NCBI GenBank assembly: GCA_963788205.1
Contig: CAWBGG010000002.1
Location: forward strand, 193,988-257,987
Direction of reading: 5' to 3'
Source: an uncultured delta proteobacterium
GTDB lineage: Bacteria; Desulfobacterota; Binatia; Binatales; Binataceae
DNA length: 64,000 nt
The notes beneath the pieces were generated by a model. That model saw only the letters and a list, made by a program, of their open reading frames with translations, ran no database searches and was not told the DNA's origin. Shown here in pieces: positions 33,798-49,249 of this stretch (position 1 is its first letter; the number at the start of each line of letters is the position of its first letter). A program made the position numbers and the translations under genes.

Positions 33798-35816
33798 TTA
33801 GTGCTGCCCGGCGCGGATTTGATCGATCAACGCACGCGCGTGCGAATCGTTCGGCCGGAGTTCCAGCCCGCGGTTCAACTGCTCCATCGCTTCTTGGTCG
33901 CGGCCGAGCGCATGGAGCATCTGTGCGGCCGAGTAGTAGGTCACCGGACGATCGGGCGCCAGCGCGATCGCCTTCTCGTATGCCGCCAAGGCGTCCTGAT
34001 TGCGCTTTTGCGCGGCCAGCGCGCCGCCCAGCGTCAGCCACACGCGAAAATCGCGGTTCTCCGGATCGCGCGCCTCAAGCGGGAGCAGAACCGCCTCAGC
34101 GCCGGACGGATCGCCATGCGCCATCTTGATCTGGGCCCGTGCCAACGCGACGGCTTTGACGCCATCAGGCAGGGATGCAGCGTGTTCGAGCGTTGCCTCG
34201 CTGCCCGCCTGGTCGCCGGTCGAGTCGAGGACTTGCGCCAGCAGCGCATAAGCAAACGGGTCCGAGCGTGGCACCAGTTTCAGCGCCTGGGCGATTTCGC
34301 TGGCGGCCTCCCGGTTTCGCCCCATCTGCATGTGAACGAATCCGAGGTTGTAGACCGCGCGATCGTTGTCGGGTTCGAACTCGACCGATTGGCTGAACTC
34401 GCGCTCGGCCGACGCCAGATCGCCATGTTCGAGGTAATGCCCGCCCAGATTGTCGTGGCACGCCGAGCATTCCGGAAACTGCTCGACGACCTGGCTGAAG
34501 AGCGTGAAGTCGTCGCGCCAAAATCCTTCGGCGCTCCAGAGCGCCACCACGTAGCTTGCGAGCAGGATAGCCGCGGCACCGATCGCGATTTGCCTGGTCT
34601 GCGTGCTACGCCGGGCAAACCGGATCGCCAGATCGCCGGCCATCACGCACAGCGCAACTGCGGGCAGGTAGAGATAGTTGTCCTGCACGATCTGATCGGG
34701 ACGCAGCGCGCGCAGATTCATCACGGGCGCGATCGCTATCCCCATCCAGGCGGCGCAGAACAGGTACAGCCGGCGGCGCGAATCGTTGCGCACCAAAAGG
34801 TAGAAGATCGCGCCGAGTGCGGCGAGAGCCGCCGCCGGCACGAGGAAGGCCGGATCCGCGGCCGTGGCGACGAAGAGCGCGCGATGGGGCGGCGGATCGA
34901 AGAACCATGGCGCGGCGAGCAACAGCAGATCGGTGACAATCACGCGCGGCACGGTCAGCAAGACCTCGGCGTTGGATGCGTGATTCAGCTGATGAGTGCG
35001 GTTGATGAATCCGAGCACCTGATAGCGAACGATCAGATAGAAGATCAGTTCGACCCAAAAAGCCGCGCTGCGGACAATCGCGGTGCGAAGGCGCGGCCAC
35101 AATTGATCCTCCGACGACTCGAGAAAAAAGGCGTACGCGAAAATCAACGCGGGAAAGAACGCGGCCACCTCATGGCTGAGGAGCGCACCGGCGAAAAACA
35201 GCATCGCGAGAATCAGCTCGGGTAACGGCGCGCGGTCGCGACGGATCAACAGGTAGATCGCGGCGAGCTCGAAAACCGCCGCCAAGGTGACGCCGCCGGC
35301 CGCCACCCACGCGACCGCTTCGGTCTGGATCGGATGAAGTGCGAAGATCGACGCGGCGACAATCGCGGCCTCGGACGAGGCCGTCAGCCGAAGCGCCACT
35401 TTATATACGAGATAGACAGCCACCAGATGCAGGCCGACCATCGCGGCGTGCCATCCTGCGGCGTTCAGACCGAACAAATTGTAGTTGAGCCACACCCACC
35501 ACAGCTGCATCGGGCGATACCGCGAGCTCACCGGCAGATGGAGCGGGTCTGAGAACCAATACTCGTCGTGAAACAGGGCCTGCCACAGGAACGAGGAGTT
35601 CGACAGACCGTGATTGGTGACGATCAGCGTATGATCGTCGAAGACGAATCCGTTGCCGAGCGATCTGAGATACACCAGCGCCGTGACGATCAGCACGCCG
35701 CCGATCAGGAGTGCCCCTCGATCGATTCCGCCCGCCAGCCCCGCCGGGACCGTCGTCCGTGGTTTCGCGTCAGCAGCCAACCGGTTCTTTATACTTAATC
35801 GGGACGCTGGTTTCAT
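33798..35816 (-). CDS. TMTC-like membrane protein (DUF1736 + TPR), paralog 6
   Basis: 672 aa. ...LVYLRSLGNGFVFDDHTLIVTNHGL...YRPMQLWWVWLNYNLFGLNAAGWHAAMVGLHLVAVYLVYK...LLSHEVAAFFPALIFAYAFF... + TPRs; ends ...LIDQIRAGQH. Confidence 0.75.
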   Translation of the reverse strand: MKPASRLSIKNRLAADAKPRTTVPAGLAGGIDRGALLIGGVLIVTALVYLRSLGNGFVFDDHTLIVTNHGLSNSSFLWQALFHDEYWFSDPLHLPVSSRYRPMQLWWVWLNYNLFGLNAAGWHAAMVGLHLVAVYLVYKVALRLTASSEAAIVAASIFALHPIQTEAVAWVAAGGVTLAAVFELAAIYLLIRRDRAPLPELILAMLFFAGALLSHEVAAFFPALIFAYAFFLESSEDQLWPRLRTAIVRSAAFWVELIFYLIVRYQVLGFINRTHQLNHASNAEVLLTVPRVIVTDLLLLAAPWFFDPPPHRALFVATAADPAFLVPAAALAALGAIFYLLVRNDSRRRLYLFCAAWMGIAIAPVMNLRALRPDQIVQDNYLYLPAVALCVMAGDLAIRFARRSTQTRQIAIGAAAILLASYVVALWSAEGFWRDDFTLFSQVVEQFPECSACHDNLGGHYLEHGDLASAEREFSQSVEFEPDNDRAVYNLGFVHMQMGRNREAASEIAQALKLVPRSDPFAYALLAQVLDSTGDQAGSEATLEHAASLPDGVKAVALARAQIKMAHGDPSGAEAVLLPLEARDPENRDFRVWLTLGGALAAQKRNQDALAAYEKAIALAPDRPVTYYSAAQMLHALGRDQEAMEQLNRGLELRPNDSHARALIDQIRAGQH

Positions 35817-35940: not shown

Positions 35941-37554
35941 TTGAGATCGTCTACGGTGCCGACTCGCGTGGCTGACCTCAACCGAAATACGCGACTGGCC
36001 ATCCTCGCCGCGCTGGTCGTTGTGGCCGGTTGGCTGAGGTTCACGGCGGTCGGCTTTGGCTTGCCCCAGCAATTTCGCCCCGACGAGGAGTTCCTGGTTC
36101 CCAAAGCGCTCGATTTCGATACCGACTGGGAGCCGCATAAGGTCGTTGGCATATACCCGGCCGCGCAGATGTACCTGGTACATGGGGTGCTGCGTGGGTA
36201 TGCGATAGTCAAAGGCGAAAGCGGGAACCTGCACGCGATTTTCGACCCGAACCAGGCGCTGGCCTTTCTGATAGCCAGAGAGGTTTCGGCTGCGATGGGC
36301 ACTGCGACCACGGCCGCGGTCTACCTGGCGGCTGTACCGATATGTGGCCCAGCCGGCGCACTGGCTTCCGCCGCGGTGGTGGCCTTCTCGACCCTCCACG
36401 TGCGCGAGTCCAAGTTCGCCAAGACCGAAGCGCCGGCGGGCCTATGGATCGCGCTCGCGATCGCCATGATGATGCGCATCGTCTATCGCGGCCGGCGCTC
36501 CGACTACGCGCTGGCCGGCTTGTTCTCCGGGCTCGCCGTGGCAACGCACTATCCGGCGGGCCTGAACGTCGTTGCCGTCTTTGTGGCGCATCTCGAAGCC
36601 CGGCGCCGCGAAAATCGGCCGTTCCTGGGCGCTCTTGGCGATGGACGGATTTATCTGGCCGGTGCGGTCACAATAGTCACTTTCTTCTGCGCGACACCCT
36701 ATTTCTTTTTGGATTGGGCGCAGACCGTCCATGACTACGCCAGGTTTATTGGCACCTTGTCTCATACGGCCGAAGCGGATGGCTGGTGGTGGCTGGTAAG
36801 CCGAATGATGCCGGATGGCTTCGGTATCACGTTGCTGCTCTTCCTGCTGGTTACACTTGCATACTCTATCCTGCGCCCGAGGCCGGGCGTGCTCTTTCTG
36901 CTGGCATTTATCGCGATTAACTTTGCGAGCTTCCTCATCGGGTCGCCCCCGCTCATGTATCGCTATCTCATAACTCCGTTGCTGCCGATGGCGGTGCTGG
37001 CTGGCGTCGCTATCGGTGATTTAACCGGCTTCGCTTCAGCGCGGCTGGGAGCCACGCGCGGCAGTTTGGCCGGAGCAATGCTGACCGGGATGATTCTGGC
37101 GCCTTCACTGATCCACGATCTGCAACTCAACCGGCTTTTGCGTCAGACCGACACGCGCACGTTCGCCAGCCAGTGGATTGCCACTCATATCGCGCCGGGA
37201 AGCAATGTCGCGGTGACCAACATCGCCTATATAAACTATGGAAAGCCGCTACTGCCCCCCGGCTGCATGGTTGTTCCGATGCAAGATCCCGCGGTGCTGC
37301 GCGCAGAGGATGTCTGGTGGGTTATCTCGGACAGTCTGCCGGAAATGCGCCTCTACTCGCCGGGACCGTCAAGCGCCCAGCTTGCTGCGCTGGAATCAAG
37401 CGCCGACCTTTGGTTCGACCTCAATCCGATTAAGGATGGCGCTCCCGCGCCGATCTTCGACGAGAACGACGCGTTTTACGCGCCCATTCAACACATCGCG
37501 AGCATGGAACGGCCCGGCCCGAGGATTCGGATCTGGAGAATCAGGCCCGCCTGA
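35941..37554 (+). CDS. GT39/PMT_2-like GT-C glycosyltransferase
   Basis: 537 aa. LAILAALVVVAGWLRFTAVGFGLPQQFRPDEEFLVPKALDF (TM1 followed by a DE-containing loop as in PMT_2/ArnT-like enzymes), then ~11 further TM helices. The C-terminal soluble tail differs from the 21414 paralog. Confidence 0.65.
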   Translation: MRSSTVPTRVADLNRNTRLAILAALVVVAGWLRFTAVGFGLPQQFRPDEEFLVPKALDFDTDWEPHKVVGIYPAAQMYLVHGVLRGYAIVKGESGNLHAIFDPNQALAFLIAREVSAAMGTATTAAVYLAAVPICGPAGALASAAVVAFSTLHVRESKFAKTEAPAGLWIALAIAMMMRIVYRGRRSDYALAGLFSGLAVATHYPAGLNVVAVFVAHLEARRRENRPFLGALGDGRIYLAGAVTIVTFFCATPYFFLDWAQTVHDYARFIGTLSHTAEADGWWWLVSRMMPDGFGITLLLFLLVTLAYSILRPRPGVLFLLAFIAINFASFLIGSPPLMYRYLITPLLPMAVLAGVAIGDLTGFASARLGATRGSLAGAMLTGMILAPSLIHDLQLNRLLRQTDTRTFASQWIATHIAPGSNVAVTNIAYINYGKPLLPPGCMVVPMQDPAVLRAEDVWWVISDSLPEMRLYSPGPSSAQLAALESSADLWFDLNPIKDGAPAPIFDENDAFYAPIQHIASMERPGPRIRIWRIRPA

Positions 37555-37590
37555 GCCGCCGGACAGGCCGTAGCTTCCGCGACCCTTCCC

Positions 37591-37770
37591 ACAGGCCGTA
37601 TGAAATCCTGCCAAGAAGTCGTCGATTGGCCGACGATGGCCTGCGAATCGGCTTCGTTGTCTTTGCGCTGCGACTCCGCTAGATCGGCGTTTCGGAGGCG
37701 ACACCCGTCGAAACTGGCAACTCCATTCGCGACTCAGCATCTCCTGCGGGCAACCGCGCCACGGCTGCTG
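37591..37770. repeat. ~180-bp intergenic repeat, copy A (contains antisense fragment of acyltransferase-3 gene)
   Basis: acaggccgtatgaaatcctgccaaga...gactcagcatctcctgcgggcaaccgcgccacggctgctg; about 85-90% identical to 41826-42020. First ~55 nt are homologous to the reverse complement of 44451-44510 (internal part of acyltransferase 44206-45423). Confidence 0.7.
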
Positions 37771-37865
37771 CCGCCCCCCAAGCCATCGGTACAGGCAAGT
37801 CTGACCGACTCCTGGAAGCTGCGATTCCGCTGCTGATCGCGTGTCTTCCACTGTCGCGGCTGGCG

Positions 37866-40800
37866 TTGTTCGACCAGCCGTTCGCAGCGGGGGACTGGAA
37901 CAACCAGCTCTGGATAATCGGTTATACCGGCGAGTACCTGCGTCAACACTGGTCCTTCCCGCGGACCTTCAACACCGATCAGCTCATAGGCATTCCCTTC
38001 CCGATATTCTACGGGACCTGGCTTTATCCTGTCGCCGGGATGGTAAGTGCGTTCCTCGGCGCGGCAATCGCCGTGCGTCTGGTTATGGTGGCCCTTTTCT
38101 GGTTGCAGACCACTCAGATCATCAGACTGGTCAGAACGGTCTATTCTGACCGCTACACCGCATGGGCGCTCGCGGCCCTTGTGGCGTTCGCAGTCTATCC
38201 GCTCGGCAATCTTTATGACCGCGGGGCGTTCGCGGAAGTGGCCGCAGCTTCGCTGCTGGTCTCAGCGCTGGCGGCGTGGATGCGCGCGCTCTATACCGAC
38301 AATCCGCGCAGCAGCGCCATCTTGGCCTCCCTGGCGTGGTTTCTACTCGCGCTTTCCGCCGGGTCGCATCCTGGCACGGCGATGCTGGGGATCGTGCTGT
38401 TCGGATTTGTCCTGGTAGCGAGTCTCGCGATTACTTCCGATCGTTTCTGGATAGCAAGAACGGCCCTGTATGCGCTGCTGTTTGTGGTTGTCCTATCACC
38501 GTGGCTGTATGCTGTTTTGAAGTTCCACCAGGATCTCGCGTTGAGTCATATCAAGTGGGCGCCGACCGACCAGATCGGAACATCCTCCTTCTATACTCAA
38601 GCGAACTTCGGACTGTTAGTGGTCGTCGGCTTCCTGTCGGTCGATGCCTGCCGCCGGCTGCGTAAAGGCCAGTTGGCCGTGACGAACAAGCTCATCCTGC
38701 CCGGCGCGTGCGTCGCCCTTTTCGTGCTGGCCGGGTTGTACCCGGTTTCGACGGTTGCGTCCCTTAAGTCTGCGTATAGCCCGGTGACCTGCTGCGATCT
38801 GCTGCTTTTGCTGGCGGCCGTACCGCTGCTGAGCGTGCTGCGGGACTTCCGGCCCGAGATCGAGAGGTGGCTGAGAATCCTGCTGCTGCTGATGACGGCG
38901 GCGATGGCAGTGGGTGTGCTGGTGAAGTTCGACCGCGTGGCCGCGGTCGAAACAACGGGCGTGCTGCCTGGCACAGGGTTGCTTGGGGAACGGAAATCCC
39001 TGGCGCAGTTGCCACCGTCCTTCTACGGTCTGCGGGACTATCTCAACGTTGCCGGGGTTGACGTTGCCGCCTCTGCGCCAAGCTCGCCGAGCGTTGACCG
39101 AAAGCATCCGGTTAGTTTCACGACGCCGTCCAGCAACTCCGGCGGGGCCTTCAGCTCCGATGCACAGGTCGCGATGGTGCCCGGCGTGGGACCGAGTTTC
39201 GGTGAAGTGCAGGCCGCGATGCCGGCCGCCGTCCGGCCACTAAGACTGGTAACGAATGTTTTGAGCTTCGGCTGGAACAGGCTGGTGGTGGGCGGAAGCG
39301 AACTGCCTCCGGCGGCCAGCTACGTCTCGCCCCGGGGGACGCTCGCATTCCCGTGGTTTCCGCTCGACAAAACATTGGGATACCGGTTCGTTCCGGATGT
39401 CCCTTATAACGTGCTTCGATTCACATCGGTAACTGCGTGTTTCGCCTGGGCAGCGATTCTCCTTTGCGCTGCGGTCTTGGAAGCCACCGGCCAGCCCGCG
39501 ATTGTCGAGCGCTTAGGGCTGGGCTATCGCTCCTTGTTCGCATCGGCATTGGCCGCCGTGGTAGAATTTTTTGGCCGAGCGATCGTTGTCGCAGGGCTTG
39601 TGACGCTCGGCTTCATCGTCGTCACGGTTCTAGGCGTCTATCGGCTTGCCCAGTTCCACCATTTCTACCCTAATGGCTTGGACTGGCGTGGAGCCCTGGA
39701 AGGGATCTGGCCGCTGTTGCCTATCACTGGATGGGCAGCTATCAGAGTGTCGCTGTTTTGGGGCTGGAGCACGGCGGTAATAGCGGGACTGCTGCTGGCA
39801 TTCGACCCGGCGCTTGGCCTGTGCGACGCGCTCCTGGCTGGCGCGGCCGGTCTGTGGTTTCTGGGGGATTTTCTCGGCAACATCTTGGGTCCGCTGGGAC
39901 TGTTTCGCGCGCCGTTGATTTGGTTGTTGTTGGCCGCCGGCACGCTTTGGTTGTTGCGCCTGCGGCCGCGCATCCGCCTGCGCGCGCCCAGCATGGGACA
40001 AAAGCTGGCGTTGCTGGCCTTCGCGCTGATGGCTGTTATAACCCTGCCGATCCAACTGGGCTCGCCGGTGGTCCCGAGGGTGGACGCGCTGGCCTGGCCG
40101 TCTTCAGCCCAGCGCATTTTGACTTTCCACACTTATGCGCCACTGAACAACGACCCCTACGCAGTCTGGGCCTGGTCCGCACAGGCGCCGGGAACGGAAT
40201 TGTTCTATGCGCTGTTGGCGCTCGGCAGTGGTACGCGACTTGCCGTGCTGGCAGAGAGCGCCGCGATGGTGCCGATGCTGGGGTTGCTGGCCTTTGGCGT
40301 TTACCGGCTGGGCCGGGTGCTTTTCGATGACCTTGCGGGCGGGTTCGCGGCTCTCCTTTTGCTGTTCACCATCTTCCACAACACCATGCAAAGCATGCGG
40401 CCGGGTGTGACCGCCTTCGCGCTAGCCAGTATTGGCCTGGCCTTCTTTCTCGACGCCCGCCGAAGCCGGACCCGCATGGCGATCGGCGCGATGTTGCTCG
40501 GGGCTTCCATTCCCTCCCATGCGATCGACGGAGCCGTCGCGATGGCGGTGGCCGCCTGCGCCGTAGTGATTTGGTCAGCGGCGAAAGTTCGATCCCGGGT
40601 CCGCGCCGGTATCGGATGCCTGGCCGGTGCTTTGCTGCTCGGGTCACCGGAGTTCTTTGTCGTGTTCCGCATACCGTTGCCTTACCCGATTCTGTTGTTA
40701 AGCCAACTTGCCGGCGTCGCGGTCATCCTTGGCTCGGCGCGAACACTCGAGGGCGAATCCGTCGCGGGCTTAACGATCCCGCGCACACTCGGCTTGGCCG

Positions 40801-41795
40801 TCTTTGGGGCCCTCGCGCTGATGCTGCCGTTCGAGTCTTGGCTTACGGTGTTCGCTCCTGGCGGGGATCAGTCATCGATTCCACTAGTGGTGGCTCAATT
40901 GCTGCTGACTCCACTAGTTCTGACGACCTCGGGAGTGGTCGGGCTTATTTTGCTGGAGGTGAAATTGCGAACCAACCCAAGAGCGCCGGCCTATGCCGTG
41001 CTTGCAGCGGGCGTCGTGCTGCTCGGTCCTGTGGCGACTCTGGTACTTGGCGTCGTAGACCCCTACGCTTCAAGCGCCTCCGCAAGGTTTATGGTTTCGC
41101 ATCCTGTGGGGTATCTCAACCTGTTCTGGTGTCCCTGCTTTATTGCCTTAATCGGGGCCTTAGCGTTCGCCTTGGTCTGGAGCCGGTGGTCCAAATCGAT
41201 TGCCCTGTTCGTGCTGCTGTGCCCGTGGATTTATCCCTGGCAGGTGACGAATCCAACCCATTTTTTGTGGCAACTATTGGGCCACTCAATGGTTGAGCAG
41301 TCGGCCTACAATCTCGACATCGCCGCCCGAGGCTACTTTTCGAATTGTCCCGATCGGCGCTGGAGCCTGAGCCCGGAAGGCTTCGCTCTGGTTGACATTC
41401 TGAACCGGGAAATAAGTGCCGGGCGGATCACGATGGAAACGCATATCCCCCATGTCTCTTTTTCGCCGCCATCATGGGACTCGCCGGCGGAGTTCGCGCT
41501 TTTCACCGGAATTAACGACGACCCAATCGATAAAGACTTCGATCCCAATGACATTTATCTTGCGGACACCCGCCGACGGTCATTCAAACAATTTGTCGCC
41601 ACTTTCGCGGAGGGCGCCCCCTACATCCTCGACGAGAGAGACCTGCCGCCGGGAATCACGTACCCGGGCTATGAAGAGATCTTTGACCGCGAGCGTCTGC
41701 ACCTTTTCCGCCGCCTCGCGCTCACTGCCAACAACGTCCCTGCACCAGCGAAATTTCCACCAGAGCTTGGCGAGCCGGGTGTCGAGGCCCCATGA
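37866..41795 (+). CDS. very large polytopic membrane protein (1309 aa), uncharacterised; GT-C-like architecture suspected
   Basis: TTG start at 37866 (first ATG about 58 codons in). More than 30 predicted hydrophobic helices plus a ~300-aa C-terminal soluble domain (...SPEGFALVDILNREISAGRITMETHIPHVSFSPPSWDSPAEFALFTGINDDP...). Residues ~570-1309 are ~90% identical to the downstream 42080-44209 protein. Confidence 0.6.
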   Translation: MFDQPFAAGDWNNQLWIIGYTGEYLRQHWSFPRTFNTDQLIGIPFPIFYGTWLYPVAGMVSAFLGAAIAVRLVMVALFWLQTTQIIRLVRTVYSDRYTAWALAALVAFAVYPLGNLYDRGAFAEVAAASLLVSALAAWMRALYTDNPRSSAILASLAWFLLALSAGSHPGTAMLGIVLFGFVLVASLAITSDRFWIARTALYALLFVVVLSPWLYAVLKFHQDLALSHIKWAPTDQIGTSSFYTQANFGLLVVVGFLSVDACRRLRKGQLAVTNKLILPGACVALFVLAGLYPVSTVASLKSAYSPVTCCDLLLLLAAVPLLSVLRDFRPEIERWLRILLLLMTAAMAVGVLVKFDRVAAVETTGVLPGTGLLGERKSLAQLPPSFYGLRDYLNVAGVDVAASAPSSPSVDRKHPVSFTTPSSNSGGAFSSDAQVAMVPGVGPSFGEVQAAMPAAVRPLRLVTNVLSFGWNRLVVGGSELPPAASYVSPRGTLAFPWFPLDKTLGYRFVPDVPYNVLRFTSVTACFAWAAILLCAAVLEATGQPAIVERLGLGYRSLFASALAAVVEFFGRAIVVAGLVTLGFIVVTVLGVYRLAQFHHFYPNGLDWRGALEGIWPLLPITGWAAIRVSLFWGWSTAVIAGLLLAFDPALGLCDALLAGAAGLWFLGDFLGNILGPLGLFRAPLIWLLLAAGTLWLLRLRPRIRLRAPSMGQKLALLAFALMAVITLPIQLGSPVVPRVDALAWPSSAQRILTFHTYAPLNNDPYAVWAWSAQAPGTELFYALLALGSGTRLAVLAESAAMVPMLGLLAFGVYRLGRVLFDDLAGGFAALLLLFTIFHNTMQSMRPGVTAFALASIGLAFFLDARRSRTRMAIGAMLLGASIPSHAIDGAVAMAVAACAVVIWSAAKVRSRVRAGIGCLAGALLLGSPEFFVVFRIPLPYPILLLSQLAGVAVILGSARTLEGESVAGLTIPRTLGLAVFGALALMLPFESWLTVFAPGGDQSSIPLVVAQLLLTPLVLTTSGVVGLILLEVKLRTNPRAPAYAVLAAGVVLLGPVATLVLGVVDPYASSASARFMVSHPVGYLNLFWCPCFIALIGALAFALVWSRWSKSIALFVLLCPWIYPWQVTNPTHFLWQLLGHSMVEQSAYNLDIAARGYFSNCPDRRWSLSPEGFALVDILNREISAGRITMETHIPHVSFSPPSWDSPAEFALFTGINDDPIDKDFDPNDIYLADTRRRSFKQFVATFAEGAPYILDERDLPPGITYPGYEEIFDRERLHLFRRLALTANNVPAPAKFPPELGEPGVEAP

Positions 41796-41825
41796 TCAGC
41801 TTAGTGAGACTTATGGCCAAGGGAG

Positions 41826-42020
41826 GCTATACATACAGGCCGTATGAAATCCTGCCAAGATATACAAGTCGTCGATTGGCCCACGATGGCCTGCGAATCG
41901 GCTTCGTTGTCTTTTCGCTGCGACTCCGCTAGATCGAAGATTCGGGGACGACAGCCGTCGAAACTGGCAACTCCATTCGCGACTCAGCATCTCCTGGGGG
42001 CAACCACGCCACGGTTGTTG
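41826..42020. repeat. ~195-bp intergenic repeat, copy B (contains antisense fragment of acyltransferase-3 gene)
   Basis: tatacatacaggccgtatgaaatcctgccaagatatacaagtcgtcgattggcccacga matches the reverse complement of acyltransferase codons ...ANRGLVYLGRISYGLYV (44451-44510) at ~90% nt identity. Translated antisense it reads PSWANRRLVYLGRISYGLYV followed by a stop. Confidence 0.7.
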
Positions 42021-42079
42021 TTGCTCCCCTTGGCCGCGCGATCGTTAGCACAGCGCTTGTAACGCTCGGGTTCATCGTC

Positions 42080-44209
42080 GTGACGGTTCTGGGCGTCTAT
42101 CGGCTTGCCCAGTTCCCCAATTTCTACCCGCATGGCCTGGACTGGCGCGGCGCCCTGGAAGGAATCTGGCCGTTGCTGCCTATCACTGGATGGGCGGCCA
42201 TCAGAGTGTCGCTGTTTTGGGGCTGGAGCACGGCGGTAATAGCCGGACTGCTGCTGGCATTCGACCCGGCGCTCGGCCTGTGCGACGCGCTCCTGGCTGG
42301 CGCGGCCGGTCTGTGGTTTCTGGGGGATTTTCTCGGCAACATCTTGGGTCCGCTGGGGCTGTTTCGCGCAGCGCTGATTTGGTTGTTGTTGGCCGCCGGC
42401 ACGCTTTGGCTGTTGCGCCTGCGACCGCGCATCCGCCTGCGCGCCCCTAGCCCGGGACAAAAACTGGCGTTGCTGGCTTTCGCGCTGATGGCGGTTATGA
42501 CCTTGCCGATCCAACTGGGTTCGCCGGTGGTCCCTTGGCACGACGCGCTGGCCTGGCCGTCTTCAGCGCAGCGAATTTTGACTTTCCACACTTATGCGCC
42601 ACTGAACAACGACCCCTACGCGGTGTGGGCCTGGTCCGCGCAGGCGCCGGGAACGGAATTGTTTTATGCGCTGTTGGCGCTCGGCAGTGGCACGCGACTG
42701 GCCGTGCTGGCGGAGAGCGCCGCGATGGTGCCGATGCTGGGGTTGCTGGCTTTTGGCGTGTACCGGCTGGGCCGGGTGCTTTTCGACGACCTTGCAGGCG
42801 GCTTCGCAGCTCTCCTTTTGCTGTTCACGATTTTCCCTAAATGGACACAAAGCATGCGGCCGGGCGTGACCGCCTTCGCGCTAGCCAGTATTGGCCTGGC
42901 CTTCTTTCTCGACAACCGCCGAAGCCGGACCCGCATGGCGATAGGCGCGATGTTGCTCGGGGCTTCCATTCCCTCCCATGCGATCGATGGAGCTATCGGG
43001 ATTGCGGTGGCCGCCTGGGCCGTAGCGATTTGGTCAGCGGCGAAAGATCGATCCCGGGTCCGCGCCGGCATCGGCTGCCTGGCCGGTGCTTTCATGCTCG
43101 GGTCACCGGAGTTCTTCGTTGTGTTCCGCATACCGTTGCCTTACTTAATTCTATTCTTAAGCCAACTTACCGGCGCCGCGGTCATCCTTGGCTCGGTGGG
43201 AACACTCAACGGCGGCTCCGTTCAGGGTTCAACGCTTCCGCGCACACTCGGCCTCGCCGTCTTTGGGGCCCTCGCGCTGGTGCTGCCGCTCGAATCTTGG
43301 CCCACTTTTGCGGCGTTCGCTCCGCTCGGGAATCAGCCAGGGATGCCATTAGCGCTGGCTCAATTGTCGCTGACTCCAATAGTGCTGACGACCTCGGGAG
43401 CGGCCGGGCTCATTTTGCTCGCGCTGAAATTGCGAACCCATCCAAGGGCGCCGGCCTATGCCGTGCTCGCAGCAAGCGTCCTGCTGCTCGGTCCGGTGGC
43501 GAACCTGGTGCTTGGCGTCGTAGCGCCCTACGTTTCAAGCGCCTCCGCAGAGTTTATGCTTTCGCACCCTGCGTTCTATCTCAATCTGTTCTGGTGTCCG
43601 TGCTTTCTGGCCTCAATCGCGGCCTTGCCACTCACCTTGGTCTGGAGCCGGTGGTCCAAATCGATTGCCCTGTTGGTGCTGCTGTCGGCGTGGATCTATC
43701 CCTGGCGCGTGATGGATCCAACCCTTTTTTGGTGGCAACGAGCCCCCCACTCCATGGTTGAGCAGTCGGCCCACAATCTCCAGATCGCCGCCCGCGGCTA
43801 CTTTTTAGATTGTCCGGATCGGCGCTGGAGCCTGAGCCCGGAAGGCTTTGCCGTGGTTGACATTCTGAACCGGGAAATAAGCGCCGGCCGGATCACGATG
43901 GCGACGCACGTCGCTCATGTCCATCTCTTGCCGCCGACGTGGGAATCGCCGGCGGAGTTTGCGCTTTTCACCGGAATTAACGACGACCCGGTCTATAAGG
44001 ACCTCGAACCCAATTTCCCGCTTTTTGCGGGTAGCCGGCAACGGTCAATCGAACAATTCGTCGCCACTCTCGCGGAGGGTGCTCCCTACATCCTCGACGA
44101 GAGAGCCCTGCCGCAGGGAATGATTTACCCGGGCTATGAAGAGATTTTTGACAGCGAGCATCTGCACCTTTTCCGCCGCGTCCCGCCCACTGCCAAAGTC
44201 CCGCACTAA
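42080..44209 (+). CDS. N-terminally truncated tandem paralog of the 37866-41795 membrane protein (corresponds to its residues ~570-1309)
   Basis: 709-aa ORF beginning GTG at 42080 (MTVLGVYRLAQFPNFYPHGLDWRGALEGIWPLLPITGWAAIRVSLFWGW...), colinear with 39640-41795 at roughly 90% identity. The frame is open upstream to a TAG at 41930-41932 with no canonical start, so the true start/expression is uncertain. Confidence 0.55.
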   Translation: MTVLGVYRLAQFPNFYPHGLDWRGALEGIWPLLPITGWAAIRVSLFWGWSTAVIAGLLLAFDPALGLCDALLAGAAGLWFLGDFLGNILGPLGLFRAALIWLLLAAGTLWLLRLRPRIRLRAPSPGQKLALLAFALMAVMTLPIQLGSPVVPWHDALAWPSSAQRILTFHTYAPLNNDPYAVWAWSAQAPGTELFYALLALGSGTRLAVLAESAAMVPMLGLLAFGVYRLGRVLFDDLAGGFAALLLLFTIFPKWTQSMRPGVTAFALASIGLAFFLDNRRSRTRMAIGAMLLGASIPSHAIDGAIGIAVAAWAVAIWSAAKDRSRVRAGIGCLAGAFMLGSPEFFVVFRIPLPYLILFLSQLTGAAVILGSVGTLNGGSVQGSTLPRTLGLAVFGALALVLPLESWPTFAAFAPLGNQPGMPLALAQLSLTPIVLTTSGAAGLILLALKLRTHPRAPAYAVLAASVLLLGPVANLVLGVVAPYVSSASAEFMLSHPAFYLNLFWCPCFLASIAALPLTLVWSRWSKSIALLVLLSAWIYPWRVMDPTLFWWQRAPHSMVEQSAHNLQIAARGYFLDCPDRRWSLSPEGFAVVDILNREISAGRITMATHVAHVHLLPPTWESPAEFALFTGINDDPVYKDLEPNFPLFAGSRQRSIEQFVATLAEGAPYILDERALPQGMIYPGYEEIFDSEHLHLFRRVPPTAKVPH

Positions 44210-45423
44210 TGTCCTCGCTTCAGACCGGCCGGGAGGGAACGACGGTGAATCGATCCTTGAGCCGCAGAAACGGGCTCTCCAGCCACTGATACGAAGCCAT
44301 CGCGAAGCCGAGCGTCAGGGCGAAGGACAACGACACGAAGATCGGCAGCGCCAGCGGCAACATCACTCCCGGCCAGCGCATCGCCAGGCCCCGGAGCCAG
44401 AAGTGCATGATCAGCTTGACGAGACACATGGCGAAAATATGGTATACGTACAGGCCGTAGGAAATCCTGCCAAGATATACCAGTCCTCGATTGGCCACGA
44501 GTTTCGGGTAAACGGCGCCGGTACCCAAAACGGCCAGCAGCAAGGCCCCTGCACCCAGCGCGATAGCGGGAAAGGCGAGCATCAGGCGTAATGCGCCCCC
44601 GGTCTTGGGAGTCTGACCGTAGTAGTAAGCGGCAAGAAACCAAAGCGTCAAGCCCCCCGCTATCAGCAACACCCGCGAGGCCGGACGCGTGCGCACCACG
44701 CTGCCGTGAGGCATCGTACCGATCAGGATACCGACGGCAAAGGGATGCAACCGGAACAAGGTGTTTACCCATATCGACGGCCCCAAATGCCCGCTGATTT
44801 GCGCCACGCCGGGCACCAGAGTCGAAGCCGTGAACATGACCAGGGCGGCCAGGCGCATCCCGCGCGTAGAGGTTCGCCGGACCACCTGCGGCCACACCAC
44901 ATAGAACTGCTCTTCGACCGAAACGCTCCACAGGACCTTCAAAGTTATGGGAAGCGAGTCGATGTGAAAAAAGTTTGCCACAAACATCAGGAGCGTCATC
45001 AGGTAGAAAGGTTGGACCGCAAAAAACTGGTAAAAGTGGCCGAGGCCGCCTACGAGAGCGATGAAAAAAAAGTACAAGGGCCAGATCCGGAGAATTCGCC
45101 GGATGTAGAAGGCCCGGAACATCGATACCCCCTGTAGCCGCGCGCTCTTTCAGAAACAGCCGCGTCAGCAGGTAGGCACTCAGCGCGAAGAACAGGTCAA
45201 CGCCGAAGCTACCCATCAACACGAGGGTCTTAGATAATCCGGGTAGCCAGAAGCCGCCCTCACCGAGCAAAGGGCTATCGGCGACGTGAGAAATGAAAAC
45301 GATCAGGAAGGCGAAGAAGCGCAGTGTATCGAGTTCAGGAAGAAAAAATCGTTCGGGCTGCCCAGCCGGGCGCTCAGTGACAGTCGCGCTGTCGAATTCG
45401 GTCTGGAGGGCGTTCTGTTTCAC
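44206..45423 (-). pseudogene. acyltransferase family 3 (OafA/OpgC-like), interrupted by a 1-nt frameshift near 45110-45125
   Basis: N-terminal ~95 codons in frame of ORF 44206-45423 (FFLPELDTLRFFAFLIVFISHV...GSFGVDLFFALSAYLLTRLFLKERAATGGIDV), then switch to frame of ORF 44220-45122 (FRAFYIRRILRIWPLYFFF...WSVSVEEQFYVVWP...ISYGLYVYH...). Removing one nt in gatgttccgggcc restores ...IDVRAFYIRR..., matching the intact paralog at 30291-31559 (VDVKAFYVRR). Confidence 0.65.
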
Positions 45424-45484
45424 GGCCTTCAGCCAGCAGACTAGGCTACCATCGCGCTAAATCAAGCCCTGAAAATGTGTCGCA

Positions 45485-47014
45485 TCAGAGCGGGATGGAG
45501 CACTGTCGAGGCCGGCTTGACCGAGCCCCAAGCGACTCCTGGGCCGGAGAGCGGGACCGCATCGCTTGGCTAATGAACACGGCCAGCAGCAGCAGGTAGA
45601 GAGGATCGGCAACATAGCGGAAGCGGCTGTTCTCCATCGCATTGAAGAGAATTCCAGTCAGGCCCGTATAGAGGATGCCTAGCACCGCGAATAGCAGGGT
45701 CGCGCGGGCGGCGATCGGCAGTCCCTTGCCGCCGCTAATCACGGTCGCAAGGCCCCATCCGATCAGCAGCGGCACCGCCACGGCGAGCAGGATCGACACC
45801 CGATAGTCCGGAGACTCATTCCCGTAGTGGATCTCTCCGTCGCTATACGGCCCGCCCAGCCTGACTGGCACCGCCAGAAGTCCCCGCTCATAGAGCGCGA
45901 TCCAGCCCGACATCTTCATCTGATTCGGATGGAGCGTCGGCGGCTCATGGCTGGCGGGTTGAAGGTACAACTGCCCGGTTGCGGCGACTGCATGAAGGTA
46001 AGCCTTCGGACGATGCCGCAGGACCCAGACCGCGTCATGCAGGCAGATCCTCGAGAGCTGGACGTAGGCAATATTGTTATAGTTGGACAGGCCATTCTGC
46101 TTGGTCTTCTCGTCCAGCGCCGGAACGCCGGTGAGCGGCGCCGAAAACGAGCCCAGCCGCACAAACGGCATGCCCAAACTCATTGCAGAGAGTTTGCCGG
46201 CGGCCACCAACTGATGACGATCGGCCGGCGGGAACTGGAGCGTGGTCATGGTGCACAGGTTCATGCCAAACCACGAGCTGGTGCTCAAGGTGCCGAAGAG
46301 CAACAGATTCTTGGCATACCAGGCCAGGATAACGGCCAGCATCGCCAAGCCCGGCGCGAAGAGCGGGTGCATCTCCTGCCGCAGGAGCAGGTAAAGCGCC
46401 GCGCCGACGCCCAGGAACCAAACGACCTGGAACGACGAGTTCATGAGCACCGGCAGCGCCAGGCAGCATACGAACGCCCATCCATAGAGACGGCGCTTGT
46501 CGCGCAGAAACCGGTTCAGGCAGAAGGCGGCCAAGACCAGAACGAAGGTGGTGGGGTAAGTGTCGTAAAACCAATTTTCGAACATCAGAGTTGCGGGTCC
46601 GATCTCGAACACGAGGGTAATCAGAAGAGCCAACCCAGTCGGGACATCGAGATCGATCATCAGCAGGAACATCACGATCGCGAGCGCGAGGCCGATCGCC
46701 GCAAACAGGACCTGCAAGACCAATGGGTAAAAAGCGGGAAAGAACTTGGCTGCCACGCCCAACGACAGGTTCATCAGCGGCGGCTGGCTATGCAGATACA
46801 ACAGGCTCTCCCACAGACGAGACTGGAGTAGCGGCAGATCCAGGAACTGCCAAAAGCCGAGGTTGGTCGCAAAGCCGTTGCCCGACTGATAGTACAGCGC
46901 TCGCGAGGCGACGAAGGCGGCCACAATCGTGAGCAGGGCAAAGCGCTCGGACGGCCACGACGGGCGCGGAACCGTTCGAGCCGGGGCCTGCATCTGCTGA
47001 TCCGGAATTTCCAT
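45485..47014 (-). CDS. uncharacterised polytopic membrane protein
   Basis: 509-aa ORF with ~12 hydrophobic helices (…LLTIVAAFVASRALYYQSGNGFATNLGFWQFLDLPLLQ...); no family motif recognised. Confidence 0.5.
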   Translation of the reverse strand: MEIPDQQMQAPARTVPRPSWPSERFALLTIVAAFVASRALYYQSGNGFATNLGFWQFLDLPLLQSRLWESLLYLHSQPPLMNLSLGVAAKFFPAFYPLVLQVLFAAIGLALAIVMFLLMIDLDVPTGLALLITLVFEIGPATLMFENWFYDTYPTTFVLVLAAFCLNRFLRDKRRLYGWAFVCCLALPVLMNSSFQVVWFLGVGAALYLLLRQEMHPLFAPGLAMLAVILAWYAKNLLLFGTLSTSSWFGMNLCTMTTLQFPPADRHQLVAAGKLSAMSLGMPFVRLGSFSAPLTGVPALDEKTKQNGLSNYNNIAYVQLSRICLHDAVWVLRHRPKAYLHAVAATGQLYLQPASHEPPTLHPNQMKMSGWIALYERGLLAVPVRLGGPYSDGEIHYGNESPDYRVSILLAVAVPLLIGWGLATVISGGKGLPIAARATLLFAVLGILYTGLTGILFNAMENSRFRYVADPLYLLLLAVFISQAMRSRSPAQESLGARSSRPRQCSIPL

Positions 47015-47101: not shown

Positions 47102-49249
47102 CTAGCGGATAGCGTAGACGCCGGGCCCGAAGCCCGGGTCACCTCTGAGCTCGGTAAAAGTTTCCGGCGCGCGGTCCATCCAGACCTTTTCCGCCGGAGG
47201 CGGGTCGAGACTCACCACGAAGTCGATGTGATCCCGCTTGAGCCGATCGACCCAGGCCTTGAAGTCGGCGCGCTTTATCAGGTCGCCTGGCGGCCCTCCG
47301 TAGTTCACCACCGAGCCGTCGGCGGTTACGGGTACGTAAACTACCGTGTTCTGAAGATGGCTGCCCAGCAGCGGATACAAATACCAGTTGTCACCGATAC
47401 CGTCCCATCCGGCGGTCACCGCAAGGCGATGGGGTTTGCTGTCATCGAGAAAGGACCAGAGCGACCAGGTCGCGTAATCCGGCGACAGCAGGTGCATGTC
47501 ATAGACCGGATCCCTGATCGCCGCCGCGGCCTGGTAGTAGGGGTAGCGCAGCCTGGATCGGATCCACGGCAGCGTCGTGATCGGCACCAGCACCATCACG
47601 GCGGCCACGATAATCGCGAACCTGCGCCAGGCTTGTCCGCCCAACATCAGGATCAGCGCCACTAACACGGCCGCAACCAGAATCGGCGCCGCCAGTTCGC
47701 CGACGGCCGCGGCGTCGAAGCTGGTAAATCCGGTTGGCAGCGCCAACGCCCCATCGACCAGCAGAACCAGCCACCAGAAACCGAAGATCCAGGCGCTCGT
47801 GAACAAGGCCGCGGCCACGGTCGCCAGCGCAAACACCGGCATCGTGAAACGGCCGAAAGTCAGAAACAGCAGCGTGCGGAACCCTGCCGTCTCGGGCGAG
47901 AACAGGCCTCCCGCCAGAACCAGCGCGATCATGAGAATGAAAAGCATCGCGCCCCTTTTTTCGGGCCGGGCGAAAGTCCTGAGCCAGCCGATTACGCCCA
48001 GGACCAATATCGCGGGAGCCAGGGGACCGAGTCCCAGATAATCAGTCGCGTACAGTTGTGAGAACGGCCAGATGAGATACAGCAGGCCGGGCGTGCTGAG
48101 GTGATGCACCAGCTTGGCGGAGTGAACCATCGACCACTCGCGATTGCCCTTCGACAGCACGCGGCCAAACAGAGTCAGCGGGAGCGGGTAGAAGGGAGAG
48201 CCTTTTTCGAGCCAAATCCGCCAGTAGGAATTCAGGAACAACAGCGTGCCGATCGCACAGGCCGTGAGCGGCACGCCAAACCGTTGCCATCCCGAGCGTT
48301 TCCTGAAAGCGCTCAGAAAGATAAAGCCCCACCCGATCGCCATCTCCGGCATCATCGTGACTTTCACGGCCGTGGCCAGTCCGAGGGCGAGGCCGGCGAG
48401 AGCGGCTTCGGGAATCGTGGGAGCGGCAAAACTTCGTGCAGTGAAGAGCAACGCCAGCAAAAAAAAGGCGAGTCCAATGGTATCGATGTACCCGGCGGTC
48501 AACGCATTGGCGATAGCCGGCGTGAATCCGATCGAGAGCGCCGAGAGCATCGCCAGCTTCTGCGTGGCCCCGAACGTCCGCGCCGCAGCGTATCCGGAAA
48601 GCACCAGACTCAACCAGAACAGCAGGCCGCAGGGCGCCAGGAATTCGCCGTCACTGGCGGCCAGCAGCGGCCAGGACCAGAACGAATCGCCCGCGGCCGG
48701 ATAATATTCGCAGAATCCCCAGGTGTCGGGCGCGGCCTGGACCACGTTGTGGCCCTGCTGGACCCATCGGCCGGCCCTGAACAGGTGATACAGCAAGGCA
48801 TCCCATCCCAGCGGCGGCGCGACCAGGCCGCGCATCACGCGGGCAATCACGATCGCGGTGAGCAGCGCGAGGATGATCGCCGGGGCCAATCGATAGGCAA
48901 ACGCGCGCTGGCCATCGGAAAAGACACTCCGTGTAAAGTCGCGAGCAAGGCCGCGCAGCCGGCGCGCGTCGAGCATCAGGAGTGCGGCCGCATCGCCGGC
49001 GCGCAACGAGAAATGAGCCGCCGCGGCCACAACCAGAATCGACACTAACGCCGGTCCGGGTCCGAACCATCCCAACGCCAGCAGCGCCACGAACGATCCG
49101 TAAAATATCCCGTAGGCCAGCAGCGTCGCACCGGCCAAGCGGGTCGAAGAAGGCGCCTCCGGCAGCATCTGCGCGGCGAGCACATACGAGGACCATCCGC
49201 ATCCGGCCAGCAGCACGAGTGCCTTCGCCAGATTCCAAATGCCGATCAC
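47102..49249 (-). CDS. uncharacterised polytopic membrane protein; paralog of 1072-3201
   Basis: 715 aa. Shares MRGLVAPPLGWDALLYHLFRAGRWVQQG, ...DTWGFCEYYPAAGDSFWSWPLLAASDGEFLAP... and the C-terminal WYLYPLLGSHLQNTVVYVPVTADGSVVNY block with the protein at the other end of the window. Confidence 0.6.
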   Translation of the reverse strand: MIGIWNLAKALVLLAGCGWSSYVLAAQMLPEAPSSTRLAGATLLAYGIFYGSFVALLALGWFGPGPALVSILVVAAAAHFSLRAGDAAALLMLDARRLRGLARDFTRSVFSDGQRAFAYRLAPAIILALLTAIVIARVMRGLVAPPLGWDALLYHLFRAGRWVQQGHNVVQAAPDTWGFCEYYPAAGDSFWSWPLLAASDGEFLAPCGLLFWLSLVLSGYAAARTFGATQKLAMLSALSIGFTPAIANALTAGYIDTIGLAFFLLALLFTARSFAAPTIPEAALAGLALGLATAVKVTMMPEMAIGWGFIFLSAFRKRSGWQRFGVPLTACAIGTLLFLNSYWRIWLEKGSPFYPLPLTLFGRVLSKGNREWSMVHSAKLVHHLSTPGLLYLIWPFSQLYATDYLGLGPLAPAILVLGVIGWLRTFARPEKRGAMLFILMIALVLAGGLFSPETAGFRTLLFLTFGRFTMPVFALATVAAALFTSAWIFGFWWLVLLVDGALALPTGFTSFDAAAVGELAAPILVAAVLVALILMLGGQAWRRFAIIVAAVMVLVPITTLPWIRSRLRYPYYQAAAAIRDPVYDMHLLSPDYATWSLWSFLDDSKPHRLAVTAGWDGIGDNWYLYPLLGSHLQNTVVYVPVTADGSVVNYGGPPGDLIKRADFKAWVDRLKRDHIDFVVSLDPPPAEKVWMDRAPETFTELRGDPGFGPGVYAIR

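Follow-up and report, generated by a model that had tools for sequence, protein, structure and literature searches.

How did two colinear copies of one membrane-protein gene come to lie in tandem in the genome of this Binataceae soil bacterium, one as the C-terminal part of a larger gene (gene A) and the other free-standing behind a copy of the same upstream repeat (gene B), and is the shorter copy a gene in its own right? Within the 64,000-nucleotide stretch that was analysed (hereafter the window), blastn aligns positions 39571-41731 colinearly with 42030-44196 over 2167 columns at 88.14% identity (251 mismatches and one gap, a single 6-nt indel; E = 0), close to the roughly 90% estimated in the original prediction, and the proteins of gene B and of the C-module of gene A share 82-84% identity. 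The upstream repeats R1 (37591-37779) and R2 (41835-42029) are 89% identical over 195 blastn columns, with 15 substitutions among 189 aligned bases and one 6-nt indel, and R2 reaches 44 nt farther left than R1. The repeat joins the coding homology without a gap at 42029|42030, equivalent to 37779|39571. That the same repeat precedes both copies, and that in copy B it is fused straight to an internal point of the gene, had both been predicted and hold true; only the right-end coordinates given for the repeat were off by about 9 nt. The differences between A and B are structured by codon (10.1%, 8.0% and 18.0% at positions 1, 2 and 3, respectively), so these are two real genes that evolve separately and not an assembly duplication. 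The proposal that the duplication is recent is not supported: dS between A and B is about 0.24 (dN 0.095, with 17.5% difference at fourfold sites), and the A-B protein distance is about that to P0008, the ortholog in a sister genome. The three protein identities are nearly equal (A-B 84%, A-P0008 83%, B-P0008 82%) and therefore do not order duplication and speciation.

No transposase is found among the ORFs flanking the copies, which encode PMT_2, acyltransferase-3 or unknown membrane proteins, and there are no inverted repeats of at least 30 nt in 36000-46000. Nothing thus points to an IS- or transposon-mediated duplication, and the predicted tandem partial duplication without IS elements is borne out. 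The surrounding 64-kb region is dense in PMT_2/TPR paralogs. The breakpoint sequences (…CCCCCC|AAGCC, …TTTTT|TGGCC and …CTCCCC|TTGGCC) share no microhomology above 0-1 nt; the letters previously taken for junction microhomology (gccacggctg / gccgtggtag) sit 13-20 nt from the breakpoints, and that claim falls. Recent gene conversion over a long tract of A and B was also rejected, since the third-position differences are evenly spread along the gene. The longest identical A/B run is 83 nt (99.9th percentile of the null, 89), and conversion is limited to a small tract at most.

Gene A encodes 1309 aa and has an annotated ORF start at TTG 37866. The conserved coding of its N-module (37793..39512, plus strand; GKSDRLLEAAIPLL...) begins at 37793 without a canonical start codon, and blastn to the relatives' loci L001-L004 covers 37793-38533 and 38918-39512. 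The N-module family comprises 436 representatives, mostly of 560-620 aa, whose free-standing members stop directly behind the module's last TM helix, and homologs of A align only with residues 1 to ~560, their C-terminal parts being different. These results suggest that the N-module is a complete member (~570 aa) of a free-standing family of GT-C-like membrane proteins. Its AF2 model, from an 11-sequence alignment, is of medium confidence (pLDDT 68, pTM 0.74), and Foldseek matches this medium-confidence model to PglB, ArnT, STT3, AftA and Pmt4 (probability 1.00, E 6e-4 to 4e-2, TM-score 0.33-0.39). In P0002-4, the closest relatives of the N-module, the C-terminal domain was considered as a distant homolog of the C-module and rejected (hhalign probability 0.4%). 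The N homology ends at 39512 and the A/B homology starts at 39571, which leaves a linker of 19 codons (GLGYRSLFASALAAVVEFF; 39513..39570, plus strand) that is absent from B and present in the sister protein P0008. The C-module of A (39571..41795, plus strand), placed by the family alignment and by its 88.1% identity with 42030-44196, is copy 1 of a predicted GT-C-fold glycosyltransferase, and the last ~20 codons of gene A extend into an acyltransferase relic. Gene A thus combines two complete proteins, an N-module and a B-type protein, in one fusion. In another genome, P0251 (an N-module with 81% identity) and P0008 (the last N-module helix, the linker and the C-module) lie on one 1.09-Mb contig. 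Because they share this contig, the sister genome appears to carry the same fusion, which would predate the species split.

Gene B (42030..44209, plus strand) is copy 2 of the putative glycosyltransferase. It encodes 709 aa; GTG 42080, the start of its annotated ORF, falls within the predicted TM1, and the frame is open from 41933. A canonical start codon before the first predicted TM helix is absent in both A and B, and B starting at GTG 42080 would lack most of TM1. The C-module family has 95 homologs, nearly all of ~690-790 aa with 95-100% coverage. A scan of Binataceae species-representative genomes with the family alignment yielded 43 C-module loci, all with at most 51% identity, and none of the 43 is fused to an N-module. 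No match was found in a scan of genome contigs with gene A, in metagenome scans with the A/B/P0008 alignment or with a 24-nt leader block, or in exact-protein look-ups for P0001, P0007, P0008 and P0251; one homolog search listed no B ortholog in the sister genome, but that search did not list gene A itself either. The AF2 model of gene B (pLDDT 89, pTM 0.91) has about 20 helices at residues 2-555 and an alpha/beta domain at 575-716, and its Foldseek matches are AglB, STT3, ArnT, DPY19 and AftA (probability 1.00, E 5e-6 to 7e-4, TM-score 0.39-0.44). Gene B and the C-module of A are thus predicted to combine a polytopic membrane part and an extracytoplasmic domain with similarity to the GT-C core. 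The family carries D85 (invariant) and D171 (nearly invariant) in a conserved loop (SPVxPxxDxL...QRIxTFxxYxPxxNxPY), candidates for the acidic catalytic residue that GT-C enzymes have in the first extracytoplasmic loop. Neither A, B, the N-module nor their homologs have a Pfam or NCBIfam profile match at E <= 1, and a profile of 48 family members has none to PDB sequences at the same threshold. Judged by these family comparisons, gene B shows the full architecture of a Binataceae-specific free-standing GT-C-fold family and is not a stump.

The repeat itself is composite, an acyltransferase-3 gene relic followed by the leader of gene A (~145 nt). The left part of R1 (37591..37636, minus strand, 46 nt) was recognized as Acyl_transf_3 relic by blastn to 41835-41886 and 44450-44500 and by tblastn with acyltransferase proteins; translated on the minus strand it reads ..NRRL--LGRISYGL. 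A longer relic lies between A and B (41736..41886, minus strand), as determined by blastn, by tblastn and by aligning the A-end/R2 region with the B-end/acyltransferase region. Its robust part, 41791-41886, is 83% identical (blastn, E 3e-23) to 44406-44500, within the minus-strand acyltransferase gene downstream of B, and a deletion of ~147 nt relative to the B-acyltransferase junction is located just to its left. The relic has an in-frame stop (..NRRLVYLGRISYGLYV*PPLAISLTKLI..), and this translation aligns with both acyltransferase paralogs in tblastn; the intact genes match PF01757. The left end of the repeat, including the conserved ISYGLYVYH region, is accordingly of Acyl_transf_3 (PF01757) origin. 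The source family is represented by the gene convergent with B (44220..45423, minus strand; Pfam PF01757). Its reading frame is interrupted at a GGG run near 45118-45131, perhaps by a true frameshift, perhaps by a mistake in the assembly; the paralog at 30291-31559 aligns with this gene in two frames (tblastn). The 46-nt relic in R1 calls for an extra assumption: either a short stretch of R1 was later converted by R2, or the relic was already there before the duplication.

The right part of the repeat shows no such similarity, and its reading as further acyltransferase remnant was rejected. Leader X1 (37637..37792, plus strand) looks like the native upstream region of gene A, being homologous (MAFFT) to the upstream regions of the N-module genes at L001-L004, with local-alignment z = 4.3-11 and none of 300 shuffles matching the observed score. 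Two blocks are conserved in X1, TTCGCGACTCAGCATCTCCTG and a promoter-like block (TTGTCT at 37657-37662, 17 nt, TAGATC at 37680-37685). Leader X2 (41887..42029, plus strand), which now stands before B, is apparently a copy of the gene A leader; it is homologous to the same upstream regions (z = 3.4-6.6) and keeps the promoter-like block (TTGTCT at 41907-41912, TAGATC at 41930-41935). The leader shows no similarity to the upstream regions of 19 free-standing C-module genes, including one on contig L004. The conserved columns hint at a promoter; a sigma-70 consensus scan called none inside the repeat. The two leader copies differ at 7.9% of positions versus 17.5% at fourfold sites (P = 0.002, Fisher's exact test), and the leader is thus the more conserved. 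A structured RNA (riboswitch or leader) was rejected, as there is no Rfam match near the repeat and the folding z-scores are +1.9 and +0.2 (consensus fold -16 kcal/mol, covariation term +0.61). An N-terminal coding extension from ATG 37600/41844 is not supported either: it requires one added base at the C-run, and whichever frame is read, most R1/R2 substitutions would change the amino acid.

Taken together, gene B probably derives from a duplicate of leader plus gene A that lost its N-module. Before the split from the sister genome, a ~720-aa C-module gene would have fused in frame behind a ~570-aa N-module gene, so that the early gene A stood under the leader native to the N-gene and was convergent with an acyltransferase-3 gene. 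A tandem duplication without a mobile element, covering the leader, all of A and a 3' portion of the acyltransferase gene, would then have joined the acyltransferase relic to the second leader copy at 41886|41887. Subsequently, as we infer the order, the distal copy would have lost 1791 nt (leader end, N-module and linker), which placed A's leader just before TM1 of the C-module (42029|42030). Gene B would thereby be a re-created free-standing glycosyltransferase, presumably transcribed from the copy of A's promoter region. The direction from A to B is indicated by the leader, since it resembles N-module upstream regions and not those of C-modules. The A/B homology begins abruptly at an invariant Arg before TM1, downstream of the starts of family members, and in the family alignment B is without the native N-tail and native start codon. 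The agreement of A and B against P0008 in the conserved half points the same way. One deletion would also explain why the A/B homology sets in exactly where the R1/R2 homology stops.

Alternatively, B could be the ancestral free-standing gene, A having been made by fusing a copy of B behind an N-module gene, and the repeat being B's own upstream region later copied before A. This would fit the family norm of a free-standing ~720-aa form and the relatives L002 and L004, in which an N-module gene has a free-standing C-module gene 3-10 kb away, but the leader resembles the upstream regions of N-module genes in relatives and not those of C-module genes. Under the same reading, the longer R2, with its acyltransferase relic positioned like the intact acyltransferase behind B, and the near-equal three-way distances among A, B and P0008 would be natural; however, B lacks the family's N-terminal tail and any canonical start before TM1, and an exact 1.8-kb insertion is required where one deletion otherwise suffices. 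We therefore regard an ancestral B as unlikely.

If B was released from A, has it been kept? Between A and B, dN/dS is 0.15 in codons 1 to ~300-320 and 0.48-0.76 (about 0.6) in codons 300-700. Among 113 family-conserved columns, B keeps 104 and A 102, and departures number 9 in B, 11 in A and 10 in P0008. Unique changes amount to 36 in A and 50 in B overall; in the conserved half they are 4 in A, 5 in B and 19 in P0008, A and B agreeing against P0008, and the branch lengths of A and B are similar. Both copies have been maintained by selection, with the N-terminal GT-C half almost unchanged and the C-terminal half diverged in both. The suggestion that B is a decaying duplicate is contradicted by the low dN/dS of the conserved half, the symmetric unique changes and the conserved columns that B keeps. 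The other suggestion, a variant C-terminal periplasmic domain, is right in that divergence is raised there, but the raised divergence covers the whole C-terminal half including the variable TM module. GT-C enzymes have one conserved and one variable module (PMC10154233). The same lipid-linked donor chemistry in A and B, combined with a different acceptor or partner, would be expected to give such a pattern, and the two copies may have diverged in function accordingly. A conserved half beside a diverging half thus offers a concrete hypothesis on which part sets specificity.

It could still be argued that B is a pseudogene remnant in which stop codons have not yet gathered, given that its first canonical start is GTG 42080 in mid-helix, that reading frames are broken nearby, in the acyltransferase and in two PMT_2/TPR paralogs, and that dN/dS reaches about 0.6 in the C-terminal half. 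We find this improbable. The B frame is open across 725 codons despite 257 nucleotide differences, a ratio of 0.15 over the first ~320 codons is impossible with one neutral branch, and B shows neither a several-fold excess of unique changes nor more departures from conserved columns than A or P0008; the conservation of its leader copy also speaks against decay. An assembly artefact, produced by joining the same locus from two strains or species head to tail or by expanding a repeat, is hardly credible. The source is evidently a metagenome-assembled genome, its proteins are known from one 1.34-Mb contig only and homopolymer errors are possible, but the 12% difference between the copies follows the codon structure, their architectures differ (B without 1791 nt, A with the 147-nt deletion and another tail), the junctions of acyltransferase relic with leader and of leader with C-module are unique, and a variant allele should contain the N-module.

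Retaining the derivation of B from A, one may speculate that gene A is bifunctional, with both GT-C modules active in two consecutive lipid-linked sugar transfers, and that B was then released under an identical leader, so that tethered and free versions with diverged acceptor-binding modules are co-expressed from non-canonical starts in the shared leader; we hold this extended scenario to be rather doubtful. Annotation should avoid the label of truncated pseudogene for B and should treat A as a fusion. The locus would record a whole modular cycle, from GT-C-like fusion through duplication to loss of a module with the parent's leader carried over, and it defines two unannotated families with GT-C-like predicted folds, one Binataceae-restricted and one broader. 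A search of the literature on Binatota glycosyltransferases found nothing relevant. The case is a clear but ordinary one of gene-family evolution, with nothing mechanistically new.

Like the GT-C enzymes (STT3/AglB/PglB, ArnT, PMT, DPY19 and AftA/Emb), both modules are polytopic, with predicted structures that match (for the N-module on a medium-confidence model), and in B, too, the membrane part is followed at the C-terminus by an alpha/beta domain. The strong selection on the N-half and relaxed selection on the C-half of A and B parallel the conserved and variable modules of these enzymes (PMC10154233), and the genes neighbour PMT_2 and TPR proteins and acyltransferase-3 genes. A and B differ from them in having no sequence-level match in Pfam, NCBIfam or PDB and TM-scores of only about 0.4, and none of the solved structures matched here joins two GT-C-like modules in a single polypeptide, as gene A does. 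Bacterial genomes also undergo tandem segmental duplication through illegitimate or unequal recombination. In keeping with this, the two copies lie next to each other in direct, colinear order, without transposase or inverted repeats, and the junction lies inside a neighbouring gene, leaving an acyltransferase relic. Such amplifications are usually unstable and near-identical, whereas this one is old (dS 0.24) and stably kept, and it later lost 1791 nt and ~147 nt by internal deletion. The Drosophila 'monkey king' genes reportedly arose by gene fission, in which a gene is duplicated and the copies then degenerate or are deleted in part. Similarly, a fused two-module gene appears here to have been duplicated and one copy to have dropped a module, giving a free-standing gene beside its parent. 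Unlike in that system, only one module was released, the parent is still fused and intact with no complementary degeneration, and the released module retains the parent's upstream leader.

Gene B (ORF 42080-44209, 709 aa) and the gene A ORF (37866-41795, 1309 aa) are colinear over 42030-44196 and 39571-41731, respectively, with 88.14% identity in 2167 columns (blastn; 251 mismatches, plus a single 6-nt indel). The upstream repeats R1 (37591-37779) and R2 (41835-42029) differ by 15 substitutions in 189 aligned bases and one 6-nt indel. R2 ends at 42029, directly abutting the start of the coding homology at 42030, and the second copy lacks 37780-39570 of the first (1791 nt, 597 codons). The original prediction of a partial tandem duplication with an upstream repeat is borne out by ORF listing, repeat finding and blastn. 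Its absence of IS flanks also holds, with neither inverted repeats nor transposase-like ORFs beside the copies, and the microhomology proposed for the junction sits elsewhere than the breakpoints. The 257 differences between A and B affect 10.1%, 8.0% and 18.0% of first, second and third codon positions. This codon structure indicates two real, separately evolving genes rather than a duplicated assembly path; an assembly artefact is rejected, and the tandem duplication is real and IS-free.

Homologs of gene A align only to its first ~560 residues (the N-module) and then continue into unrelated C-terminal parts. The N-module family comprises 436 representatives at 50% clustering, most of them free-standing, 560-620 aa long and terminating shortly after the helix preceding the linker of A. 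It is also a promiscuous fusion partner: besides free-standing forms of ~600 aa, it is joined to an unrelated ~500-aa membrane domain in P0002-P0004, to beta-rich repeats in P0005 and P0006, and to a TIG domain in P0112. Gene B has 95 homologs, nearly all of 690-790 aa and from Candidatus Binataceae/Binatus metagenome-assembled genomes, covering 95-100% of B. The C-module gene is free-standing in 43 loci of species-representative genomes, some with tandem or inverted pairs, and an N-module precedes it in none of the 43. Gene A is thus a fusion of two complete proteins, whereas gene B is built like an ordinary member of its family. Old tandem or inverted pairs of free-standing C-module genes are frequent elsewhere in Binataceae (L020 10016-14330, L021 10388-14292, L046; L009, L026, L031, L041, L045 and L047), which makes duplication recurrent in this family. 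In another Binataceae subclade (L025, L027, L032, L034, L037 and L043), the stop-to-stop C-module ORF runs 270-400 aa upstream of the match (~10001). These extensions are mutually homologous (42-71%), closing with a TM helix and a charged or proline-rich linker, and thus the C-module there seems to be joined to a different N-terminal partner.

The repeat is a composite of an acyltransferase-3 gene relic and the leader of gene A. The relic forms its left end in minus-strand reading: 41791-41886 is 83% identical to 44406-44500, within the minus-strand Acyl_transf_3 gene (44220-45423) convergent with gene B, and its translation, NRRLVYLGRISYGLYV*PPLAISLTKLI, contains an in-frame stop. R1 shares only the last 46 nt of the relic. 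Fainter acyltransferase similarity reaches leftward to ~41736, beneath the final ~20 codons of gene A, and it adjoins a ~147-nt deletion relative to the junction between B and the acyltransferase gene. The remainder of the repeat, leader X (~145 nt; X1 37637-37792 and X2 41887-42029), shows no acyltransferase similarity in either copy. X aligns with the intergenic sequence immediately upstream of N-module genes in the four closest fetched relatives (L001-L004), with local-alignment scores above those of 300 shuffles by 4.3-11 SD for X1 and 3.4-6.6 SD for X2; no shuffle exceeded an observed score, and only that of the weakest pair (X2 and L001) was equalled. As a control, X was compared with the regions upstream of 19 free-standing C-module genes, including that of contig L004 itself, and nothing was found (z from -1.7 to 2.1). 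Since X resembles sequences upstream of N-module genes and not of C-module genes, it is the native leader of the N-module of gene A, of which gene B carries a copy. Two blocks are conserved in X, TCGGCT..TTG.CTTT..GCT.CGA.TC.G.TA and TCGC.ACTCAGC...TCCT, and the first could be promoter-like (TTGTCT, 17 nt, TAGATC). R1 and R2 differ at 7.9% of sites, against 17.5% at fourfold-degenerate sites (P = 0.002, Fisher's exact test), with 2 substitutions in the left 100 nt and 13 in the right 89 nt, and a 42-nt block containing the second motif is identical in both. The repeat is not a structured RNA, and its variable stretches have no coding look in any frame.

A sister genome encodes, on one 1,093,926-bp contig, P0251, an N-module of 81% identity, and P0008, which runs from the last N-module helix via the same linker into the C-module and shows 83% identity with A and 82% with B. 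Its ortholog of the fused gene is called as these two ORFs: P0251 is frameshifted past about residue 430, and P0008 has an internal-Met start in the last N-module helix. The split is due either to pseudogenisation of the fusion or to a frameshift in the assembly. The fused A-type gene in the sister shows that the fusion is older than the divergence of the two genomes. B most likely derives from A, not the reverse, because B has the leader of the N-module gene, because A/B homology starts abruptly at an invariant Arg before TM1 and B is without a family-type N-terminal tail or start codon, and because the end of R1/R2 homology coincides with the start of A/B homology, for which a single deletion suffices. 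The history can be reconstructed well and most likely ran as follows: N-module and C-module proteins fused into gene A, A and its leader were duplicated in tandem, and the second copy then lost its N-module, giving the free-standing paralog B. The join of relic and X at 41886/41887 is best read as the duplication junction, and the duplicated segment would have extended from the leader of A into the acyltransferase gene that follows it. The presence of 46 nt of relic in R1 and the near-identical left 100 nt of the repeat can be explained by an older relic that acted as recombination substrate, or by a later short R2-to-R1 conversion. The duplication had been considered recent but is not; the near-equal identities among A, B and P0008 place it at roughly the time of speciation. 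In the conserved half, a three-way count of unique changes (19 in P0008, 4 in A, 5 in B) groups A with B against P0008, and in the second half (32 in A, 45 in B, 29 in P0008) both copies are accelerated. No sister ortholog of B is among the gene B homolog matches, a weak negative as the same search also missed gene A.

Between A and B, dS is 0.24, dN is 0.095 and dN/dS is 0.39 overall (Nei-Gojobori). dS varies little between 100-codon blocks (0.16-0.33), and dN/dS rises from 0.14-0.16 over codons 1-300 to 0.48-0.76 over codons 300-700. Third-position differences are evenly spread and no identical run exceeds 83 nt, so a large recent conversion has not taken place. The 83-nt run (39816-39898 and 42275-42357; null 95th percentile 66, 99.9th 89) could mark a short conversion tract, or it could reflect strong constraint on the transmembrane segment that is most conserved. 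A dN/dS of 0.15 in the conserved half is incompatible with either copy being neutral. Of the 113 columns with 90% or more conservation across 46 other members of the family, B departs at 9, A at 11 and P0008 at 10. The low dN/dS and these few departures indicate that B is not the decaying remnant once proposed; it is a selectively maintained free-standing paralog.

A canonical start upstream of the first predicted helix is absent from both A and B. In A (37780-37866), 37793-37865 retains 21/25 protein identity to relatives with changes mainly at third positions, no canonical start lies upstream of the conserved N-terminal coding sequence GKSDRLLEAAIPLLIACLPLSRLAL, and a 13-nt gap removes the region where relatives have a GTG/TTG start. 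The sister protein P0251, too, starts at the position corresponding to TTG 37866. The first canonical start of B, GTG 42080, is mid-TM1. Possible explanations are initiation at a non-canonical codon, a lost first helix, or homopolymer errors at junction-adjacent C-runs. The acyltransferase gene beside B (44206-45423, minus strand) has its frame broken at a GGG run near 45118-45131, which keeps homopolymer errors a possible cause. Two PMT_2/TPR paralogs are also broken into two ORFs each (31774-33763, plus strand; 15820-17954, minus strand), and these three genes may be real pseudogenes or carry long-read homopolymer errors.

PMT_2/TPR paralogs abound in the surrounding 64 kb, which also contains two acyltransferase-3 genes. 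At least 10 genes combine a PMT_2-like membrane domain with TPR repeats (~670-790 aa) at 33-48% mutual identity (e.g., 3217-5562, 25510-27528, 27879-30242, 33798-35816, 51256-53355, 58651-60765 and 60660-62741). Other paralog pairs are 1072-3201 and 47102-49249 (43%), and 21414-23162 and 62782-63924 (49%). GC skew is -0.13 in the 2-kb bin 56001-58000, inside ORF 55697-58498 (933 aa), versus about 0 elsewhere.

Neither the N-module nor the C-module matches Pfam, NCBIfam or PDB sequence families. The AlphaFold model of gene B is confident (pLDDT 89, pTM 0.91), and each of its top PDB hits is a GT-C glycosyltransferase, namely AglB, STT3, ArnT, DPY19 and AftA (probability 1.00, E down to 5e-6, TM-score about 0.4). 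The N-module model, of medium confidence (pLDDT 68), matches PglB, ArnT, STT3, AftA and Pmt4. The locus provides a further instance of known processes, acting here on two GT-C-like families without existing annotation. GT-C enzymes have one conserved and one variable module (PMC10154233), which the conserved N-terminal half and diverging C-terminal half of A and B parallel; this split suggests that the two copies may have diverged in acceptor or partner recognition.
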